A stretch of 28,001 nucleotides of DNA from an uncultured Bacilli bacterium (GCA_947598425.1 CANQFH010000001.1:1-28001); one strand, 5' to 3'. Shown: positions 9,479 through 18,419, counted from the stretch's first letter. Notes: generated from the sequence alone by a model not told the origin. Program-made: numbers and translations.

Positions 9479-9505
9479 AAGAAAAATGCTCATAATAAGC
9501 ATTTT
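9479..9505 (-). terminator. Intrinsic terminator of the HA/AAA/vWA operon
   Basis: AAAATGCT-TATTATG-AGCATTTT then TCTT, overlapping the vWA gene stop codon. Confidence 0.6.
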
Positions 9506-10865
9506 ATCGAGATCTAACTCTGGTATATAAATTCTTTAATTCATATTTATCAATAGTAATTACTCTACCTCCTAAAGGTTTTATTTCTTCACCAAAAACT
9601 ATCCAAATAGCATCTAAAGGTTTTTGAGGTATACTAGCATAGCCATCAGTAAAAATTATTTTATTTTCTACTCTATTAGTAAAAGCCTCTACTGCAACAT
9701 CAAAGTTAGTACCACCACCACCTTGAAAAACCATATTTTCAATATCTTCTTCGCTTCTTATTTCATAAAATCCATAAAATTTAGTATCAAAGCAACCAAC
9801 TTTCATTCTCGAATAAGGTAAAATATTCTTACATTCTCTTAAAAAGCTTTTTAATAAATCACTATCAATAGAACCACTAGTATCTAAAAGAATTTCTGTT
9901 TCCGGTACCATTCGTTCTTCTAAATTAGCCATAACCACACCATCTTCGATATAGGCATTTTTATAAGACCAATCAACATCATAATTAATAGCCTCTCTTA
10001 AAAGATAACGCCAATCTAATAATGGCTTTCCTATTCCAATATCAGTTATATCTAGACTATCACCATTACTTTTAGTACCAAAATTCATTGCTTGTTCAGC
10101 TATATCATTTTTTAATTTATCCAATTCTTCTTGTTTTTCTTTTTGATTATGTTGAAAAGCTTCTTTTTCTCCTATTTTACTAATCTTTTTAGATTCTTTT
10201 TGTAATTCATCTTTTTTATTATTGTTATTATTACTTTCTTCATTATTGGCTTGTTTCTTCTTTTCTAAAGCTTTTTTCCACATACTATGTGAGTCATGAC
10301 CGGCATCTTTATTTTCTTGTTCATTACTATTCCCATTTTGTTTATTATCTTCCTTAACTTCATTATTACCATTAGAATTATTATTTTCATTTTGAGAATT
10401 TTGTTCATTGTTTTGTTTGTTTTCTTCATTATAATCTTCATCTTGGTTTTGATCATCACTATTTTGCATTAAGATTTCATATAATTTTTCAGCATCATAA
10501 TTAATAGCTTCAGGGATATTAACGGCACCAGAGACTAATTTTAAACCATCCTTTTTTAAAAATTGATTAATAACGGCATCGGTTGCAATATTCCAAACAT
10601 GTTCATCTTTATTTTCACTGCGATTGATATGATCAAAAGCAATATGACATACTTCATGTGCAAGGGTAAAGGTTTGTTCTGAGGCATCTAGTTTTTGCAT
10701 AAAGTTCGGATTATAATAAATGACTTCCCCATCAGTTTCTGCTGTTTTAATGGAAGTATCTATTTGATAAGTAGAATTAGCTAAAACCCCTCCAAAAAAA
10801 GGATATTTTACTAACATTTTTCTTTTAATTGTTTCAATATCAAAATTCATAAACACCTCATACAT
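9504..10865 (-). CDS. DUF2201-type protein: N-terminal HExxH metallopeptidase-like domain, low-complexity linker, C-terminal vWA domain
   Basis: TAETDG..YYNPNF, LAHEVCH, WNIATDAVIN; MIDAS elements LLDTSGS, GGGGTNF, IFTDGY. Confidence 0.88.
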   Translation of the reverse strand: MYEVFMNFDIETIKRKMLVKYPFFGGVLANSTYQIDTSIKTAETDGEVIYYNPNFMQKLDASEQTFTLAHEVCHIAFDHINRSENKDEHVWNIATDAVINQFLKKDGLKLVSGAVNIPEAINYDAEKLYEILMQNSDDQNQDEDYNEENKQNNEQNSQNENNNSNGNNEVKEDNKQNGNSNEQENKDAGHDSHSMWKKALEKKKQANNEESNNNNNKKDELQKESKKISKIGEKEAFQHNQKEKQEELDKLKNDIAEQAMNFGTKSNGDSLDITDIGIGKPLLDWRYLLREAINYDVDWSYKNAYIEDGVVMANLEERMVPETEILLDTSGSIDSDLLKSFLRECKNILPYSRMKVGCFDTKFYGFYEIRSEEDIENMVFQGGGGTNFDVAVEAFTNRVENKIIFTDGYASIPQKPLDAIWIVFGEEIKPLGGRVITIDKYELKNLYTRVRSR

Positions 10866-11241
10866 GCGCTACTAAAGAATATATTTCTTCATTAATTGTA
10901 TCTTTATTAATATTACTTGCTGTTAATATAATTACTACATTAGAAGGCAATTTAAATGTTGATATTTGCTTACTTTCTAATAATTCGATAAATTTTAATT
11001 GTTCTTCTTTAGATATAGTATCAATTCTATCTATTACAAGTAAACTCTTTTCAGCATTTAACTTCTTAAACCATTCTGGAGCAACATAACTATCATTATC
11101 ATAATGGCCACATAATTCACTTTTGGATATATTAGCAGGTATTACTACTGCATATGGTAATTTACTTACATCAAAGTTTGTTAATATCGGAGCTACATTA
11201 CTTATAATATAATTTTTTAATAATTCTTTTTTTTCTTTCAT
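10858..11241 (-). CDS. Degenerate (inactive) AAA+ core, paralogous to the neighbouring ATPase
   Basis: Aligns by eye to the upstream ATPase (PEWFKKL/PTWLKKL, LLVIDR/IVFFDE, KLPSNVVII/NLPNNARIV, IYSLVAHV/LFNRFAHV); no Walker A. Confidence 0.75.
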   Translation of the reverse strand: MKEKKELLKNYIISNVAPILTNFDVSKLPYAVVIPANISKSELCGHYDNDSYVAPEWFKKLNAEKSLLVIDRIDTISKEEQLKFIELLESKQISTFKLPSNVVIILTASNINKDTINEEIYSLVAHV

Positions 11242-13052
11242 AATCTTCGACCTTCAGCTATTCTTGTTGTGGCAATTATTTCTAAACGAGATTCATCATT
11301 ACGAACCCAAATGTTATCAAATAATGCAACAAGCTCCAAACCTAATTTTTTAACAAAATCTCGAACTTTGATAACATTTTCTTCATCTACTTGTGATAAA
11401 TTCATAACTGTAGCATACTTTGAGGCAATATTTAATGATTCGATATTTTGATCAGTATAATTATCATTAAGAACAGCATCTAAAGTGATTATTGGTTCTT
11501 TACAAAAAGTTACAAACTCTCTAGTTATACCTTCTCCAACCAAAGCTCTTAACATCTCCGGATTATTGGTAGCATATAACATTTTAGAAGCCATTTCCCA
11601 TTTTCGAGGATCAGCATTAGGTTTTTCACCATCATACTTACTGCGTAATGTTTCCCCTTTTCTATAGGCAATATAAGCACAGATAGCAGGATGAATATTA
11701 TTTTCACCAGCCCACTTTAACCAACTTTCGGGAGTTGTTTTAATATACACATGAGCAAAGCGATTGAATAATGGTTCTGCAAGTTTATTAGCTGCTAAAG
11801 AATCATTCATTTCATTACCAGCAGCAACTATTCGAGCATTATTAGGTAAATTCCAAATACCATTAACTTCTTTATCTAAAATTATATTAAAAGCAATACC
11901 TTGAATACTTGGTAAGGCATTAGTTAATTCATCAAAGAAAACTATATGTAATTTATCAGGTTCATTTTCACATAACATTTCTAATTTTTTTAACCATGTT
12001 GGTTTAATATCAATCATTTCTCCAGTCTCAGAATTATATACACTTTTACCATTTAAACTTTCGGGAGTTGCATTTCTTAGATAGATAGTTATGCAATTTT
12101 TATCTATTTGTTTAACACGAGCACTTTTTCCTTCTGATGATGGTCCATGTAAAAATACTGCAACTCCACTTTCAATGGCTCCTTTGATTATATCTTCTTC
12201 ACTTACTTTTTTTAAGTTAAAACCATAAGGATTATTTACTTTTTTTACTGTAACAAGTTCTTGAGTTAAATCAAATAACATATATCTATCTAAAAATTGG
12301 TATAATTCTGTTTTAGAAAAATCATCAAACCATTCTTCTGTTTGAGCAAATCTAATACCTCCAAGTAAACCTCTTCTAGATATTAAAGTATTTGTTTCAT
12401 AATCCACTAACCATCTAACTGGAGATACTTCTATCCATACCCAATCACCATCTTTATATTTAATACCATTTGATAAAGTTACAGATTGTTCATAATTTAA
12501 TCTCGCTTGAACTCTAACATATCTTTTATTATCATATAGATATTCTTTACAGGCTAATGGTTCAAAAGGCCTATCATCATAATCCGGAGTAGGATCGTTC
12601 TTATCAATGAAAAAATATCTTCCAGTTAATTGTAAATTCGAATGAACGACAGAAGAATTAAGTTGCTTTTGAATTTTACCATCGGCAGCATATTGAGGAT
12701 ATTCACCCAATTCTATTTCCTCGACTCCATTATAACCAATTATTCTTTCGCCTGGTGGCATTGCTGATATTTTTAATACTGGTCTAATAGCAGCGGTTCT
12801 AGTATTACAACTACAACCAAGTGGAACTACACACATTCTTACTACATGACCCATGGGGGTTACTGTTTTAGTATAAATCCAACCTGCATTACCTTTTAGT
12901 GGTCCTTCTTGAACAACTTTGGTAACATCAATATCACTATAAGCTCCAGTAACTAAAGCAAAGTCTGTAACTGCAGCTTTACTACCCCACTTCTTTATGG
13001 TCTCTAAAGAGTTATAATCATCTAATGAAAGGATACTTATATCTTCTATCAT
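11238..13052 (-). CDS. MoxR/dynein-related AAA+ ATPase (AAA_5-like) with ~280-aa N-terminal extension
   Basis: Walker A GPSSEGKS, Walker B IVFFDE, sensor I AAGN, R-finger NRF, DPRKWE; N-terminus carries an RPVL motif (DUF6273-like) plus GEYPQ and VSPVRWLV. Confidence 0.88.
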   Translation of the reverse strand: MIEDISILSLDDYNSLETIKKWGSKAAVTDFALVTGAYSDIDVTKVVQEGPLKGNAGWIYTKTVTPMGHVVRMCVVPLGCSCNTRTAAIRPVLKISAMPPGERIIGYNGVEEIELGEYPQYAADGKIQKQLNSSVVHSNLQLTGRYFFIDKNDPTPDYDDRPFEPLACKEYLYDNKRYVRVQARLNYEQSVTLSNGIKYKDGDWVWIEVSPVRWLVDYETNTLISRRGLLGGIRFAQTEEWFDDFSKTELYQFLDRYMLFDLTQELVTVKKVNNPYGFNLKKVSEEDIIKGAIESGVAVFLHGPSSEGKSARVKQIDKNCITIYLRNATPESLNGKSVYNSETGEMIDIKPTWLKKLEMLCENEPDKLHIVFFDELTNALPSIQGIAFNIILDKEVNGIWNLPNNARIVAAGNEMNDSLAANKLAEPLFNRFAHVYIKTTPESWLKWAGENNIHPAICAYIAYRKGETLRSKYDGEKPNADPRKWEMASKMLYATNNPEMLRALVGEGITREFVTFCKEPIITLDAVLNDNYTDQNIESLNIASKYATVMNLSQVDEENVIKVRDFVKKLGLELVALFDNIWVRNDESRLEIIATTRIAEGRRL

Positions 13053-14440
13053 TTTATACCACCTATCCTACTAGCTTCTTTTTCCATAAGATTACTAATC
13101 TTAATATTATATAATTTTTCAACATCTTTATTACTCATACTAAATATTGGATTTAATAACCCTTTTGCATCGATAATATATTGATTATTATTTATTAAAA
13201 TATTAATTTTAATTATTAACATTATTTTAGATATTCTTCTTAAGATATCTTTATTTAATTCTTTATTTATATGATATTTTAAACATATATCACTAATATC
13301 ATCTAAATGCTTTTTATTATTCCAAATGATTCCTAATTTATTTAATAAATATTCTCTATTTAAATATAATAGTCCTCTTTTATATGCTGTTCTTTGATTA
13401 GATAACCATACCCCTAAAGGTAAACCATCTTGGTCATAAGTAATTCCATCTTTAGTACAAAAAGCTTTATTAATATTTAAATTACCGTAATAATGATGAT
13501 AATTACAAGCTAAATCATAATATTTATTCCAAGTATAGTCTTGAACTTCCCAAATCATGCCAATACTATTTAATCTTTCAATATTATTTTCAGAAACTTT
13601 ATTATCGTAATTTGCCGCTCTTTGACTATGCAACCATTTACTTAAATTAGTACCATATTCACTTACTTCATAACCATTAGTAGTTATAAAATTATCAGGA
13701 ACATCTAAATTACCATAATGTTCATAGTAACTTTTAGCAAGGGCAAAATTGGCTTCCCAATCTAACTTACTGGCATCCCAGACCATACCTAATGCTTCTA
13801 ACTTAGCTATTTTATCTTGAGATAATTCATTATTTGTATATAGAGTTCTTTGTCTACTAATCCATCGACCTAACTTATAATCAGGAATACTATAAGTATT
13901 ATCAGTGATAAATTTAATAGGTATTAAGATATTATTATGTTTTTCTTGATATTCCTTTACTAAATGATAACTTTTCTCCCATAAGCTTTCTTGTTTAGGT
14001 ATATCGATACCATAAACTTGACTAGCCTCTAATAAAGACATATTGAATATAGGATGGACAATACCATCACTATTAGTAATACTTTCATTAACTCCTAATA
14101 AATAGTTGATTTTAATTTTAAATTCTGCCGCAGGCATTCTTTGTAAAACTTTTCGATTTAATTTATAATCTATACTATATGTTTCATATAACTTTTTAAC
14201 ACTATCTTTTGATTCTTTTAATATCCAAGTCATTCCAATATTATTTAATTTACTAACTCTCTCTGATTCTAATATTCCATTTAAATGATTGACTCTTTGA
14301 TCATGAATCCAACTACCTAAAGGAAAACCATTTTCATTATAAGTAATACCATCTTGGGTTTTAAAACTACTAGATATATACAAATTACCATGATAATGAT
14401 AGTATTTACTAGCTAAATTATAAGCCTCTATCCATTTCAT
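13049..14440 (-). CDS. Helicase-associated (HA) repeat protein A: 4 HA repeats and 2 copies of an unnamed cap domain
   Basis: Repeats of W..Y..A..Y....GNL....LG.W...QR....L......L..IG..W; no helicase motifs. Confidence 0.85.
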   Translation of the reverse strand: MKWIEAYNLASKYYHYHGNLYISSSFKTQDGITYNENGFPLGSWIHDQRVNHLNGILESERVSKLNNIGMTWILKESKDSVKKLYETYSIDYKLNRKVLQRMPAAEFKIKINYLLGVNESITNSDGIVHPIFNMSLLEASQVYGIDIPKQESLWEKSYHLVKEYQEKHNNILIPIKFITDNTYSIPDYKLGRWISRQRTLYTNNELSQDKIAKLEALGMVWDASKLDWEANFALAKSYYEHYGNLDVPDNFITTNGYEVSEYGTNLSKWLHSQRAANYDNKVSENNIERLNSIGMIWEVQDYTWNKYYDLACNYHHYYGNLNINKAFCTKDGITYDQDGLPLGVWLSNQRTAYKRGLLYLNREYLLNKLGIIWNNKKHLDDISDICLKYHINKELNKDILRRISKIMLIIKINILINNNQYIIDAKGLLNPIFSMSNKDVEKLYNIKISNLMEKEASRIGGIK

Positions 14441-14443
14441 ATT

Positions 14444-15568
14444 TTACCCCCTAACTATAGAATCTCTTTGATATAAATTGATACCATATTCTTCTATGAT
14501 ATCTTTATTAGACATCTTAAATATTTTATTTAATTTACCATTAACGTCTACAATATTTTCATTTACACTTTGTAAATAATCTATTTTTAACATTAATTCT
14601 TTTTCAGATATTCTTTTTAAAATAGCTTTATTTAATTCATAATCAATATGATATTTTAAACAAAGATCTTTAACAGTATTTTTATTTAATTTTATATCCC
14701 AAATCATATCAATATTATTTAATTTAGTTACTTTATCAGGACTTAATTTTTCTTTTTGATAATCACTTCTTTGCAGACAAATCCATTGTCCTAAACTTAA
14801 TCCTTCGATATCAGCATTAATACCATCTTTAGTAGTAAATCTTCTATTAACATTTAAATTACCATAAAATTCATAATATTTTGTAGCTAAGTCATAATAT
14901 TGTTCCCAAATATAATCATGAGTATTCCAAACCATTCCAATATCCTCTAACTTATCTATTCGATACTGACTTAACTTTCCTAATCTATATTCTTGTCTTT
15001 GTTCAGCTATCCAGTGTCCTAAACAAAGGTTATTACTTACATAATCAAAACTAACCACTAAATTACCATTACTTTCATAATATTGATATGCTAAATTATA
15101 ATAACTTTCCCAAGTATTATCATAACAGTTCCAGATCATTCCTATCAAATTTAATAAATATTCTCTTTCTTCATATAAAGTTTTTGTTTGATATTGATTT
15201 CTTTGAATATGAATCCAATTAGCTAAAGGTAGACCTTCATTATCATAATTAATACCATCTTTAGTTTTATATCCAGCTGGTACATCTAAATTACCATATT
15301 TAGTATAATAATTACACGCTAATGTATAATATTTATTCCAAGTATAATCAAATGAATTCCAGATCATTCCCAATTCATTTAATTTCACTTTTCGATATCT
15401 TAATAATGTATTTGCTTGATAAGCACATCTTTGAGAATTAACCCAGCTTCCTAAAGAAAAATTAGGAATACTATATGTAGCATCAGTTACAAACTTAGCT
15501 GGAACATTTACATTATGATTTTTATCTTTATATTCTTTTAATAAACTATAAGCCTCTATCCATTCCAT
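14444..15568 (-). CDS. HA repeat protein B: 4 HA repeats and C-terminal cap domain
   Basis: Same HA consensus four times; ends CLKYHIDYELN...IFKMSNKD. Confidence 0.85.
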   Translation of the reverse strand: MEWIEAYSLLKEYKDKNHNVNVPAKFVTDATYSIPNFSLGSWVNSQRCAYQANTLLRYRKVKLNELGMIWNSFDYTWNKYYTLACNYYTKYGNLDVPAGYKTKDGINYDNEGLPLANWIHIQRNQYQTKTLYEEREYLLNLIGMIWNCYDNTWESYYNLAYQYYESNGNLVVSFDYVSNNLCLGHWIAEQRQEYRLGKLSQYRIDKLEDIGMVWNTHDYIWEQYYDLATKYYEFYGNLNVNRRFTTKDGINADIEGLSLGQWICLQRSDYQKEKLSPDKVTKLNNIDMIWDIKLNKNTVKDLCLKYHIDYELNKAILKRISEKELMLKIDYLQSVNENIVDVNGKLNKIFKMSNKDIIEEYGINLYQRDSIVRG

Positions 15569-15570
15569 AT

Positions 15571-16449
15571 CTATTTTCCTTTTCTATTATAACTAAAAGC
15601 ATCCCAAATCATATTAATCTTATTTAGTTTATCTATTCTATCTTGAGATAATCTTTTCTTTTTATAACTATATCTTTGACTATTAATCCAAACCCCTAAA
15701 GTAATACCATCTTGATTATAATTTATACCATCTTTAGTTATAAAATCTCTTTTAACTCGCAAATCACCATAATAATTATAATATTTACTAGCTAAATCAT
15801 AACAAACTAACCAATTATAATCATGAGCATCCCAAATCATCCCAATAGCATTTAACTTAGTTATTTTATCTTTATTAATAACTCCTTCAAGATAACTACT
15901 TCTTTGATAATGAATCCAGGAACCTAAAAATAAACCACTTTTCGTTTTATAACTATAAGGAATATTTAAATTACCATTTAATTTATAATAATTTTGAGCT
16001 TCTAAATAGTATTTCTCCCAATTATTTTTATTCCATAAGATACCAATATCATTTAATTTGTTAATCTTATCTGCACTTAAAATTCCTTGTTTATAATCCC
16101 TTCTTTGAACAGATATCCAAGCTCCTAAGTTAACACCATTCTTAGTTTGATAACGATTAGTAATATCAAGATTACCATGACTTTTATAATATTTTTGAGC
16201 CTCTAAATAATTTTGATTCCATAAATATTCTCTGACATTCCAAATCATTTTAATTTTATTTAATTTAGTAATCTCTTTTTTTGTTAATAATTCCTTTTGA
16301 TAATTACCTCTTTGAATACTTATCCATCTACCTAATTTATAATTTGGCACACTATAAGTGTTATCTGTAATATATTTAAAAGGTATTAAACAATTTTTAT
16401 TCTTTTGATAATATTCGAAAGCTAAATTATATATCTCTTCCCATTTCAC
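15571..16449 (-). CDS. HA repeat protein C: 4 HA repeats, no cap domain
   Basis: HA consensus four times; GTG start with AGGGGG RBS. Confidence 0.85.
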   Translation of the reverse strand: MKWEEIYNLAFEYYQKNKNCLIPFKYITDNTYSVPNYKLGRWISIQRGNYQKELLTKKEITKLNKIKMIWNVREYLWNQNYLEAQKYYKSHGNLDITNRYQTKNGVNLGAWISVQRRDYKQGILSADKINKLNDIGILWNKNNWEKYYLEAQNYYKLNGNLNIPYSYKTKSGLFLGSWIHYQRSSYLEGVINKDKITKLNAIGMIWDAHDYNWLVCYDLASKYYNYYGDLRVKRDFITKDGINYNQDGITLGVWINSQRYSYKKKRLSQDRIDKLNKINMIWDAFSYNRKGK

Positions 16450-17497
16450 AATTTATCCCCCTTTGATATAAATCGATACCATATTCATTAATGATATCTT
16501 TATTAGACATTTTAAATATTTTATTTAAATGACCATGATTATCTATAATATTTTCATTAATACTTTGTAAATAATTTATTTTTAATATTAATTCTTTTAT
16601 TGCTATTCTTTTTAAAATATCTTTATTTAATTCATAATTGATATGATATTCTAAACAAAGATCTTTAACTTCTTTTTGATTTAGTCGTATATCCCAAATC
16701 ATCCCAATATTACTTAATTTAGTAATTCTATCGGTACTTAAAATACCTTTTTGATAATTATATCTTTGAGTATTAAGCCATACTCCTAAAGGTAGGCCTT
16801 CTTCATCATAAGTAACACCATCTTTAGTCTTAAATTTTCGATGAATATGTAGATTACCATAACTTTCATAATATTTAGTAGCTAAGTGATAATAAACTTC
16901 CCACATATAAGTAAGAACGTTCCAAATCATCCCAATGCTATTTAGTTTATTAATTCTTTCTGGACTTAAATTACCATAGCTATTTCTTTGATCATGAATC
17001 CAACTACCTAATTTAATACCATCTTCTTCATAATCTATCGGTACCACTAAATTATTATTCTTTTTATAATAATTACAAGCAGCTTGATACATTTGCTCCC
17101 AACTATCTTTTTGATAAAACCAAATGATTCCTAAACTATTTAATTTAGCTATCCGTTCAGGACTTAATTTACCTAACTTATAAGATTCTTTTTGATGAGC
17201 TAACCATCTATTTATAGAAGTATCTAAAACTAAATTAATATTCCCATATTCTTCATAATATTTTTTCAAAATATTATATTTTTCTTCCCAATTATTTTCT
17301 CTTTTATTCCAAATAATACCGATACTTTCTAATTTATTAATTTGTTCTTTACTTAACTTACCTAAACTATATTTAATTTTAATATTACTAAGCCATATAC
17401 CTAATTTAACACCATTTATAATATAATCTTTAGGTATATTTAAATCACCATGACATTCATAATATTCTTTAGCTAATTCATAATTATAATCCCACAT
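16427..17497 (-). CDS. HA repeat protein D: 4 HA repeats and C-terminal cap domain
   Basis: HA consensus four times; AAGGAG RBS overlapping the upstream stop. Confidence 0.85.
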   Translation of the reverse strand: MWDYNYELAKEYYECHGDLNIPKDYIINGVKLGIWLSNIKIKYSLGKLSKEQINKLESIGIIWNKRENNWEEKYNILKKYYEEYGNINLVLDTSINRWLAHQKESYKLGKLSPERIAKLNSLGIIWFYQKDSWEQMYQAACNYYKKNNNLVVPIDYEEDGIKLGSWIHDQRNSYGNLSPERINKLNSIGMIWNVLTYMWEVYYHLATKYYESYGNLHIHRKFKTKDGVTYDEEGLPLGVWLNTQRYNYQKGILSTDRITKLSNIGMIWDIRLNQKEVKDLCLEYHINYELNKDILKRIAIKELILKINYLQSINENIIDNHGHLNKIFKMSNKDIINEYGIDLYQRGINCEMGRDI

Positions 17498-17507
17498 ATA
17501 CTACTCC

Positions 17508-18392
17508 TTACTTCGATTTACGACTTTTTCTAAAGTTAACTTTATATACTTCATTAATATCTTTTAAAGACATATTAAATATGGGATGAAGTATGCCTTC
17601 AGAATTAACTATATCTGCATCAATACTTAATAAATAATCTATTTTAGCTTGAAATAATGCCGGGACTGTTCTTTTATAATTCTCTTTATTCTTTTCTAAA
17701 TCTATACCATAAGTTTTACATATATTATTCATAATATCTCTATTAACTCTAGTTTTCCAAACTATTCCAATATTATTTAACTTTTCTTCACGATCTGGAT
17801 ACAATTTATTATTATTTCTAAAATATTTTTGATCTCTTAACCATACTCCTAAAGGTAGACCTTCTTCACAATAAGTAATTCCATCTAAAGTTTTAAATTT
17901 ATTTTTTATTTTTAAATTACCATAATGATTATAATAAGTTTGAGCTAGGTTATAATATTGCTCCCAAACATAATCATAATAGTTCCAAATCATTCCTATC
18001 TTATTTAATAATTCTACACGAGAATCTATTAAAATACCTTGATTATATGTACATCTTTGGTAATGAATCCATGCTCCTAAATTAAAATCATTAACTACAT
18101 AATCATAAGGTATAGCTAAATTACCATTTAATTCATAGTATTTTTTAGCTTCTAAATAGTTTTGATTCCAATCTTCATCAATCATATTCCAAATAACATG
18201 AATCTCTTCAAGTAAAGATGCTCTTTCTGAACTTAAATTATCACTAGAATATAAATATCTTTGAAGTGCTAACCATTTTCCTAATTTAATATCATTGATT
18301 ATATAATCTTTTGGAATATTTAAATTACCATGAGTATGATAATAATCTACTGCGAGTTGATATATTTCATTCCATCTATTATTATTCAACAT
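17508..18392 (-). CDS. HA repeat protein E: 3 HA repeats and C-terminal cap domain
   Basis: HA consensus three times. Start set at ATG 18392 (GGGGG RBS) rather than 18407. Confidence 0.85.
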   Translation of the reverse strand: MLNNNRWNEIYQLAVDYYHTHGNLNIPKDYIINDIKLGKWLALQRYLYSSDNLSSERASLLEEIHVIWNMIDEDWNQNYLEAKKYYELNGNLAIPYDYVVNDFNLGAWIHYQRCTYNQGILIDSRVELLNKIGMIWNYYDYVWEQYYNLAQTYYNHYGNLKIKNKFKTLDGITYCEEGLPLGVWLRDQKYFRNNNKLYPDREEKLNNIGIVWKTRVNRDIMNNICKTYGIDLEKNKENYKRTVPALFQAKIDYLLSIDADIVNSEGILHPIFNMSLKDINEVYKVNFRKSRKSK

Positions 18393-18419
18393 AAAAATAA
18401 CCCCCAAAATATAGGGATT

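Follow-up and report, generated by a model that had tools for sequence, protein, structure and literature searches.

A small, apparently inactive AAA+ paralog encoded between a MoxR-like ATPase and a DUF2201 peptidase-VWA protein in gut Bacilli

A stretch of 28,001 nucleotides from an uncultured Bacilli bacterium (GCA_947598425.1 CANQFH010000001.1:1-28001; hereafter, the window) carries on its minus strand three tightly packed genes, which encode a 604-amino acid (a.a.) ATPase with a MoxR-like AAA+ core, a protein of 127 a.a., and a 453-a.a. DUF2201 protein that joins a zinc metallopeptidase domain to a VWA domain. What could so short a protein do between an ATPase and a peptidase-VWA protein? 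An earlier note, made from the sequence alone, had proposed that the 127-a.a. protein (hereafter, the small protein) is a trimmed, inactive copy of its neighbor's AAA+ core that has been retained as a regulatory subunit. The small gene occupies positions 10858..11241 (-), with its stop codon at 10858-10860, and translation of the window gives an intact open reading frame (ORF) with no frameshift. Since the small ORF begins at 11241, it shares 4 nt (ATGA) with the end of the ATPase ORF (11238..13052, -); the DUF2201 ORF (9504..10865, -) starts at 10865 and overlaps the end of the small ORF at 10858 by 8 nt. These ORF coordinates agree with the intact, doubly overlapping reading frame described earlier. 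No minus-strand terminator-like site was found between the three genes, and promoter-like matches were at chance level only. The small gene belongs to the operon of its ATPase neighbor. A fusion of the ATPase and the small protein by programmed frameshifting was considered and rejected, since the frame of the junction varies between loci (4-nt overlaps, 1-nt overlaps, and gaps).

Fold, Kinship, and Lost Motifs of the Small Protein

An AlphaFold2 model of the small protein, built with a 93-sequence alignment, reached a predicted local distance difference test (pLDDT) score of 93.1 and a predicted TM-score (pTM) of 0.86. The model begins with helix 0 and strands 1 and 2, continues through a hairpin (residues 46-53) and a short helix 2 to strand 3 and helix 3, and ends, after a second hairpin (about residues 92-97), with strand 4, helix 4, and strand 5. 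The five-stranded α/β core therefore comes with both the helix-2-insert hairpin and the pre-sensor-1 hairpin, the MoxR/dynein-like AAA+ feature that was tested. Foldseek against the PDB returned AAA+ ATPases only (NtrC1, NorQ, FleQ, Lon, CbbQ, and a MoxR; E-value about 2e-4, TMq 0.6-0.7). A fold search independent of Foldseek placed CbbQ2 first (Z 11.2, 125 residues aligned, root-mean-square deviation 3.1), followed by NorQ (Z 10.2), dynein AAA modules (Z about 10), and Mdn1 (Z 9.7), and all 50 of its 50 rows were AAA+ proteins. The AAA+ fold assumed in the earlier note is thus predicted at high confidence. At the level of sequence, a profile of the 93 homologs retrieved nothing meaningful among PDB sequences (best E-value 0.66, a ribosomal protein). 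The Pfam AAA_5 family (PF07728) matched the small protein with 12.6 bits (E-value 0.14), below its gathering threshold of 22 bits, and a Sigma54 match was likewise sub-threshold. No family in Pfam, NCBIfam, or PADLOC covers the small protein, and its sole PHROG matches are weak and fall on phrog_1297.

The phrog_1297 family is that of the neighboring ATPase core, which matches it over a.a. 286-590 (E-value 1.2e-49). Pairwise BLASTP between the small protein and the ATPase is weak yet collinear (23% identity over 87 a.a., residues 53-127 against 349-435; E-value 0.009 in a single comparison). Alignment of profiles is far stronger: hhalign, comparing the 93 small homologs with 20 ATPases of the neighbor's type, gave a probability of 96.1% and an E-value of 2.8e-9, with small-protein residues 37-111 corresponding to ATPase residues 327-415. 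A hidden Markov model (HMM) of 59 ATPase cores matches 41 of the 93 small proteins at E≤0.01, as against 0 of 465 shuffled controls, and its alignments extend to the C-terminal AHV(Y) of the small protein. Twelve of the 93 match phrog_1297, while any other PHROG is matched by at most two; the generic Pfam AAA families, AAA_5 included, are each matched by 2/93 (E≤0.01). Conversely, the small-protein profile matches ATPase ORFs of a related genome with an E-value of about 1e-6. Small proteins and ATPases also have non-catalytic motifs in common, namely PxW, the Q and F of helix 3, LPxN, and AHV. The small protein is therefore a degenerate paralog of the AAA+ α/β domain of the upstream ATPase, and its origin by duplication and trimming of an ATPase gene is plausible, because tandem ATPase duplicates are common in these loci.

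Which parts of the ATP site survive the trimming? In 20 aligned ATPases, G303, G308, K309, D374, E375, N413, and R431 are among the invariant residues, and the core of the 604-a.a. ATPase appears active. Since this core had no useful match among PDB sequences, the assignment of R431 as the Arg finger rests on its position and invariance. The small protein departs from the ATPase at each of these sites, and the motif pairs that had been quoted for the two proteins are all present in their translations. Family-wide counts below refer to 93 diverse small homologs. In place of the P-loop and the helix that follows it, the model and the alignment put a short linker (residues 22-30; 11152..11178, -). 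A test for the Walker A pattern GxxxxGK[ST] was negative, as 7-9 linker residues stand where the ATPase has GPSSEGKS, and GK[ST] occurs in 0/93; in the model, strands 19-21 and 31-35 lack an intervening helix. Strand 3 (residues 67-71 in the model) leads into a degenerate Walker B motif (LLVI-DR-ID, residues 67-74; 11020..11043, -). Position 71 most often holds D (34 homologs), followed by K (16), N (13), and E (12); at position 72 the leading residues are N (42), D (15), G (11), and K (10), with Glu outside the seven commonest there. An alternative register, in which D74 would be the Walker B aspartate, has a following E in only 17/93. The register of this motif shifts by 1-3 residues among BLASTP, hhalign, and the model strand, and in none of them is there a family-wide Asp-Glu pair.

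The distal half of the site is equally altered. At the end of strand 4, the sensor-1 position (residues 106-109; 10915..10926, -; hhalign register) reads LTAS where the ATPase has AAGN, and position 109 holds K (35), S (14), or N (13) with no conserved Asn. The C-terminal residues 121-127 (10861..10881, -), YSLVAHV, correspond to FNRFAHV of the ATPase in the alignments that reach the terminal AHV(Y), and position 123, aligned to R431, is L in 67 and Y in 12. The C-terminal helical lid is missing altogether, as the small protein stops at strand 5 (AHV) and the C termini of its homologs lie only a few residues from there. In sum, the small protein keeps helix 0, the five strands, the two hairpins, and helices 3 and 4. 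It has lost the lid in its entirety and the N-terminal sensor domain, along with the P-loop and its helix, the Walker B Glu, sensor 1, and the Arg finger. Conservation falls instead on structural and surface positions (P18, P55, W57, L68, I70, D74, Q81, K83, F84, K89, P99, N101, and I104), and nine positions are near-invariant. Judged by these residues, the whole family is predicted to be catalytically dead, and the combined losses would leave the small protein unable to bind or hydrolyze ATP. The comparison by hhalign, the ATPase-core HMM, and the motif counts all agree with the earlier description of a trimmed, inactive core that is specifically akin to its neighbor.

Conservation of the Small Gene and Its Cassette

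Reduced paralogs may be mere debris. The same tandem duplicates that make a trimmed origin plausible would allow the small gene to be a decaying, functionless ATPase fragment that acts only as a spacer for translational coupling. The small protein does change more quickly than the ATPase core. Homologs share about 57% identity with the window's small protein, as against about 75% in the ATPase core; the corresponding values are about 50% for the VWA protein and 35% for the N-terminal domain of the ATPase. On the other hand, a word-indexed search with 90% clustering recovered 402 homologs of 69-223 a.a., and an exhaustive phmmer search recovered 179 representatives at 50% identity (E≤1e-3). A scan of one genome per species gave 80 loci, in which all 80 complete small genes are intact although their proteins range from 38 to 66% identity; 79 of them encode 124-138 a.a. 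and one encodes 163 a.a. In close genome pairs, the ratio of nonsynonymous to synonymous substitution rates (dN/dS, Nei-Gojobori), an approximate measure in these AT-rich genes, where it is biased, was 0.16-0.20 for the small gene; the ATPase core next to it gave 0.11-0.13 in these pairs. An apparent dN/dS above 1 in the VWA N-terminus came from misregistered segments and was discarded. Purifying selection acts on the small gene. Its dN/dS and its intactness, together with the uniform length, the nine near-invariant positions in 93 diverse sequences, and a fold predicted with very high confidence, contradict the decay explanation, which we regard as extremely improbable. Homologs are therefore many, intact, and selected, and the sporadic, neutrally evolving remnants that the earlier note had named as the opposite outcome were not seen.

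The distribution of the gene is patchy. It occurs in 4 of 25 genomes of a genus sample that includes the window's own, in 4 of 49 genomes of the family beyond the window's own, and in 0 of 349 genomes from 29 other families of the class. All 80 loci come from metagenome-assembled genomes (MAGs) of small-genome gut Bacilli type, under record names that include Clostridium sp. CAG:417, Coprobacillus sp. CAG:605, and Mycoplasma sp. CAG:877. Among viral sequences, IMG/VR yielded a single locus, and none of 50,697 phage records matched the small protein by tblastn. The family was not found in the published literature searched, and PADLOC and NCBIfam gave no real match for the ATPase, small, or DUF2201 protein.

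Within these genomes, the small gene is a conserved part of a cassette. An ATPase core is encoded directly upstream in 67 of the 69 loci with enough sequence, and in 56 of these 67 the ATPase stop and the small start overlap by 4 nt or 1 nt. A DUF2201 (metallopeptidase-VWA) gene lies directly downstream in 68/76, in most loci at a spacing of -14 to +11 nt. Five loci (L062, L063, L084, L086, and L087) have the ATPase and the small gene without an adjacent VWA gene. The order is changed to small-VWA-ATPase in L069 and to small-ATPase-ATPase in L012, and in one genome (G007) a distant 121-a.a. homolog precedes a 731-a.a. AAA_5 protein. The most faithful link of the small gene is to the ATPase. 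In one locus (L005:7518-9854, genome G019), the ATPase is split by a single in-frame TGA into ORFs of 556 and 192 a.a., and the adjoining small gene is intact.

The Sensor ATPase and the Peptidase-VWA Protein

The 604-a.a. ATPase has two parts: (i) an N-terminal domain (a.a. 1-285; 12198-13052, -); and (ii) the MoxR-like AAA+ core followed by a C-terminal helical region (a.a. 286-604). The N-terminal domain belongs to no Pfam family and has no fold match in the PDB (best Z 4.0); its model has a pLDDT of 76, with low confidence exactly over a variable segment. This segment (a.a. ~58-92, GW..T...RPVL; 12777..12881, -), in which R90 and P91 are invariant, has a GC content of 0.40 as compared with about 0.25-0.30 nearby, and it corresponds to the variable region (VR) of a diversity-generating retroelement (DGR) in relatives. 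At least 21 of the 80 genome loci, and also the single IMG/VR locus, encode a DGR-type reverse transcriptase (RT; phrog_1423, E-value 2.8e-106) immediately upstream of the ATPase. Upstream of the RT, a template repeat (TR) of 80-100 nt pairs with a VR in the ATPase N-terminal domain, at codons ~64-98. Pairs of TR and VR were recovered in 16 related loci (L090:4704-6370, L014, L017, L013, L025, L026, L036, L041, L016, L055, L070, L071, L075, L079, L080, and L083), with 166 of 190 mismatches at template adenines. The N-terminal domain of the ATPase is rewritten by the DGR in many relatives. The fuller cassette of these relatives therefore consists of the TR, the RT, an ATPase with a variable N-terminal domain, the pseudo-AAA+ protein, and the peptidase-VWA protein. 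A search of the window and of the 87%-complete assembly revealed neither an RT nor a TR for the window's ATPase, which would make the equivalent segment there an orphan or lapsed target. Some N-terminal domains contain stop codons; recoding under genetic code 4 was considered for them and rejected, as the stops are a mixture of TAA, TAG, and TGA. DGR-linked MoxR/vWA systems have been published, and AAA ATPases fused to CLec DGR targets are also cited there (PMC10907252).

The 453-a.a. protein consists of a DUF2201_N zinc metallopeptidase domain, an acidic, Asn-rich linker, and a DUF2201 VWA domain. Its Pfam matches are PF13203 (E-value 1.6e-33) and PF09967 (E-value 2.1e-11), it matches phrog_1314 (E-value 6.9e-65), and its translation contains the motifs HEVCH of the peptidase and DTSGS of the VWA metal ion-dependent adhesion site (MIDAS). 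Between the two domains, the linker (~10100-10480, -) is a low-complexity region rich in Asn, Gln, Glu, Asp, and Lys. Because of this linker, the protein is longer than the 380-403 a.a. versions of two-gene systems. Taken together, the cassette is best explained as a sensor ATPase with a zinc-peptidase-VWA module, whose N-terminal domain is DGR-rewritten in many relatives. In those relatives it would link targeted hypermutation of an ATPase sensor domain with a peptidase-VWA effector.

Two further observations concern the surroundings of the ATPase. Upstream of it on the same strand lie five helicase-associated (HA) domain-repeat genes (13049-18407, -), which were rejected as part of the cassette, being carried by 0 of the 80 related loci. 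One protein of 1018 a.a. (P0271) has a single N-terminal domain followed by two complete tandem ATPase modules, with Walker A intact in both; it is either a fusion of tandem paralogs or an artefact of assembly or gene calling.

Possible Roles beside the ATPase Ring

Non-catalytic paralogs that tune ring ATPases are mostly fused domains (ChlD, dynein, and clamp loaders) or eukaryotic (LAP1/LULL1). In an AAA+ ring, the face of a protomer that carries helix 3, helix 4, and the Arg finger completes the ATP site of its neighbor, and the P-loop face and lid receive the next protomer. By analogy, the small protein could be a one-sided mimic of a protomer of the ATPase ring, which caps or bridges the ATPase; we give this reading an even chance. 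The preserved face of helix 3, hairpin, and helix 4 would dock on the nucleotide face of an ATPase protomer, the choice of face being argued from general AAA+ topology. A Leu would take the place of the Arg finger at the docked interface, and with neither a lid nor a P-loop face no further protomer could stack on the small protein. Because only the helix 3/helix 4 face is kept and its Arg is gone, the small protein could fill a terminal, hydrolysis-dead position in an ATPase ring or spiral and halt stacking. Such a position could determine how the motor assembles and fires and where the peptidase-VWA partner is placed, and the retention of the pore-side hairpins suggests that the small protein would sit in register with the ring. 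It would then be a non-catalytic AAA+ partner of an active ring ATPase in the form of a free-standing bare core. At 127 a.a., and lacking both a lid and a nucleotide pocket, this bacterial core would be the smallest partner of its kind, and it would offer a tractable model of how a single dead protomer controls the assembly of a MoxR-type motor.

Several loci weigh against the protomer mimic. Two-gene systems of ATPase and DUF2201 protein without the small gene occur in the same genus (G001, adjoining an integrase-family gene), in another genome (G036), and in the N4-like Erwinia phage S6; the small protein would therefore be an accessory and not a mechanistic necessity. Tandem arrays, with several ATPase paralogs per single small gene, fit poorly to an inhibitor that acts one to one. 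In these arrays (L047, L021, L033, L035, L058, and G172:C16), the ATPase cores are near-identical (70-90%) and the N-terminal domains divergent (23-45%) beside a single small gene and a single VWA gene; in L047 there are two complete cassettes and additional ATPases. An intact small gene also stands beside a mere 88-a.a. ATPase remnant (L051:6735-7393), and another has no adjoining ATPase or VWA gene (L020:7001-7393). Decay of the cassette could account for these last two, as could a partner of the small protein that is encoded elsewhere.

How the small protein relates to the VWA protein bears on a second explanation, in which it is a bridging module like that of ChlD/BchD but encoded by a separate gene. 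Its dead core would bind the ATPase ring, possibly as a second tier, and hold the peptidase-linker-VWA protein, so that the small and DUF2201 proteins together would do the job of single-chain ChlD. The close spacing or overlap of the small and VWA genes in most loci is consistent with this, as is the likeness of the DUF2201 protein to ChlD in its acidic low-complexity linker and intact MIDAS. ChlD bridges motor and client (PMC6604950; PMC3789969): it links the ChlI motor to ChlH, and its integrin I domain governs ChlH binding (PMC6604950). Similarly, CobT anchors on CobS by its N-terminal domain (doi 10.64898/2026.10.09.757910). ChlD/BchD resembles the present cassette in having a non-motor paralog beside an active MoxR-related motor, with a VWA/integrin-I domain and an acidic linker in the system. 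However, the ChlD module is fused to its linker and VWA domain, while the small protein is a separate gene product; the 150 phmmer matches listed were all of ≤233 a.a. (most 120-140 a.a.), and a search limited to longer proteins found no fusion to either the ATPase or the VWA protein. The ChlD AAA+ module keeps its lid, unlike the small protein, which also lacks the P-loop helix, and the VWA partner here carries a zinc peptidase. In addition, the ATPase and the small gene occur with no adjacent VWA gene in five loci, and the two-gene systems do without such a bridge. A ChlD-like bridge is, on balance, unlikely.

A purely negative role would make the small protein a guard against oligomerization, or ring poison, that keeps the sensor ATPase monomeric or open until a ligand binds the N-terminal domain. 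The lack of both an Arg finger and a ring-extending face would suit this role, as would the overlap of the small start with the ATPase stop in most loci, and an off-state guard would suit the hypervariable, DGR-written sensor domain of relatives. There is a precedent in LAP1/LULL1, whose luminal domains have an AAA+-like fold without nucleotide-binding motifs and partner the active Torsin ATPase (PMC4358337); they are reported to act negatively on Torsin's oligomeric state (PMC5638581). LAP1 differs in that it supplies a strictly conserved Arg finger and activates Torsin, where the small protein has Leu (67/93) or Tyr, and LAP1/LULL1 are eukaryotic and membrane-anchored; neither was among the top fold matches of the small protein. 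A single small gene for arrays of up to four ATPase paralogs speaks against a pure inhibitor, and the conserved pore-facing hairpins (G45, Y47, P99, and N101) would be needless for a simple interface blocker. We consider this explanation likewise unlikely. A more elaborate version combines capping with sensing: the dead mini-AAA+ would cap the DGR-diversified sensor ATPase and block ring closure until a ligand on the N-terminal domain displaces the cap, whereupon the ring would close on the VWA finger and the zinc peptidase would be released. This chain of events is quite improbable as a whole; if true, it would give the Torsin-LAP1 principle a counterpart in bacteria, one that inhibits, within a programmable sensor-protease.

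The protomer mimic can also be set against other MoxR systems. NorQ-NorD, CbbQ-CbbO, CobS-CobT, and RavA-ViaA likewise combine a MoxR-like ATPase with a MIDAS-bearing VWA partner, and such pairs hold the best structural matches of the small protein (CbbQ2 and NorQ). The VWA finger sits in the AAA+ pore in NorQD (PMC13036017) and CobST (doi 10.64898/2026.10.09.757910), where it contacts the helix-2 inserts (PMC13036017). These systems are binary, however, with no free dead AAA+ subunit, and their VWA partners lack a DUF2201_N peptidase. The earlier note had compared the small protein with the inactive NTPases of ternary MoxR-vWA systems. This comparison stands only as a concept. Those conflict systems (VMAP, iSTAND, and FtsH types) add to a MoxR and vWA core a third component, in some cases an inactive NTPase (PMC7159879), and DGRs diversify sensors in some of them (PMC10907252). 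The comparison does not extend to the components themselves: theirs come from other NTPase clades and are large and multidomain (iSTAND, or a double FtsH module with an inactive N-terminal copy), as opposed to a 127-a.a. bare core, and their DGR variable regions lie in C-terminal CLec domains of vWA or other targets, as opposed to the ATPase's own N-terminal domain. Pfam and PADLOC profiles, which do not include the VMAP/iSTAND profiles of Kaur et al. (2020), gave no match of VMAP, iSTAND, FtsH, or β-propeller type. The non-hydrolyzing AAA+ module of ChlD/BchD and the LAP1/LULL1 partners of Torsin are closer analogs than these third components.

Phages have a related gene pair, for example gp035-gp036 of Erwinia phage vB_EamP-S6, which belongs to the same ATPase-core (phrog_1297) and peptidase-VWA (phrog_1314) families but comprises two genes only, with a short ATPase of ~340 a.a. 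that has no N-terminal domain, and no pseudo-AAA. A 134-a.a. ORF between the ATPase and VWA genes of Acinetobacter phage At2 was examined as a candidate and is not a relative (hhalign probability 0.5%). In the ESM Atlas, the small protein reaches scores of 0.86-0.87 with several mostly viral clusters of 140-200 a.a. proteins that have AAA_5/AAA annotations. These could represent further short AAA+ forms, and scores of this size make them leads only.

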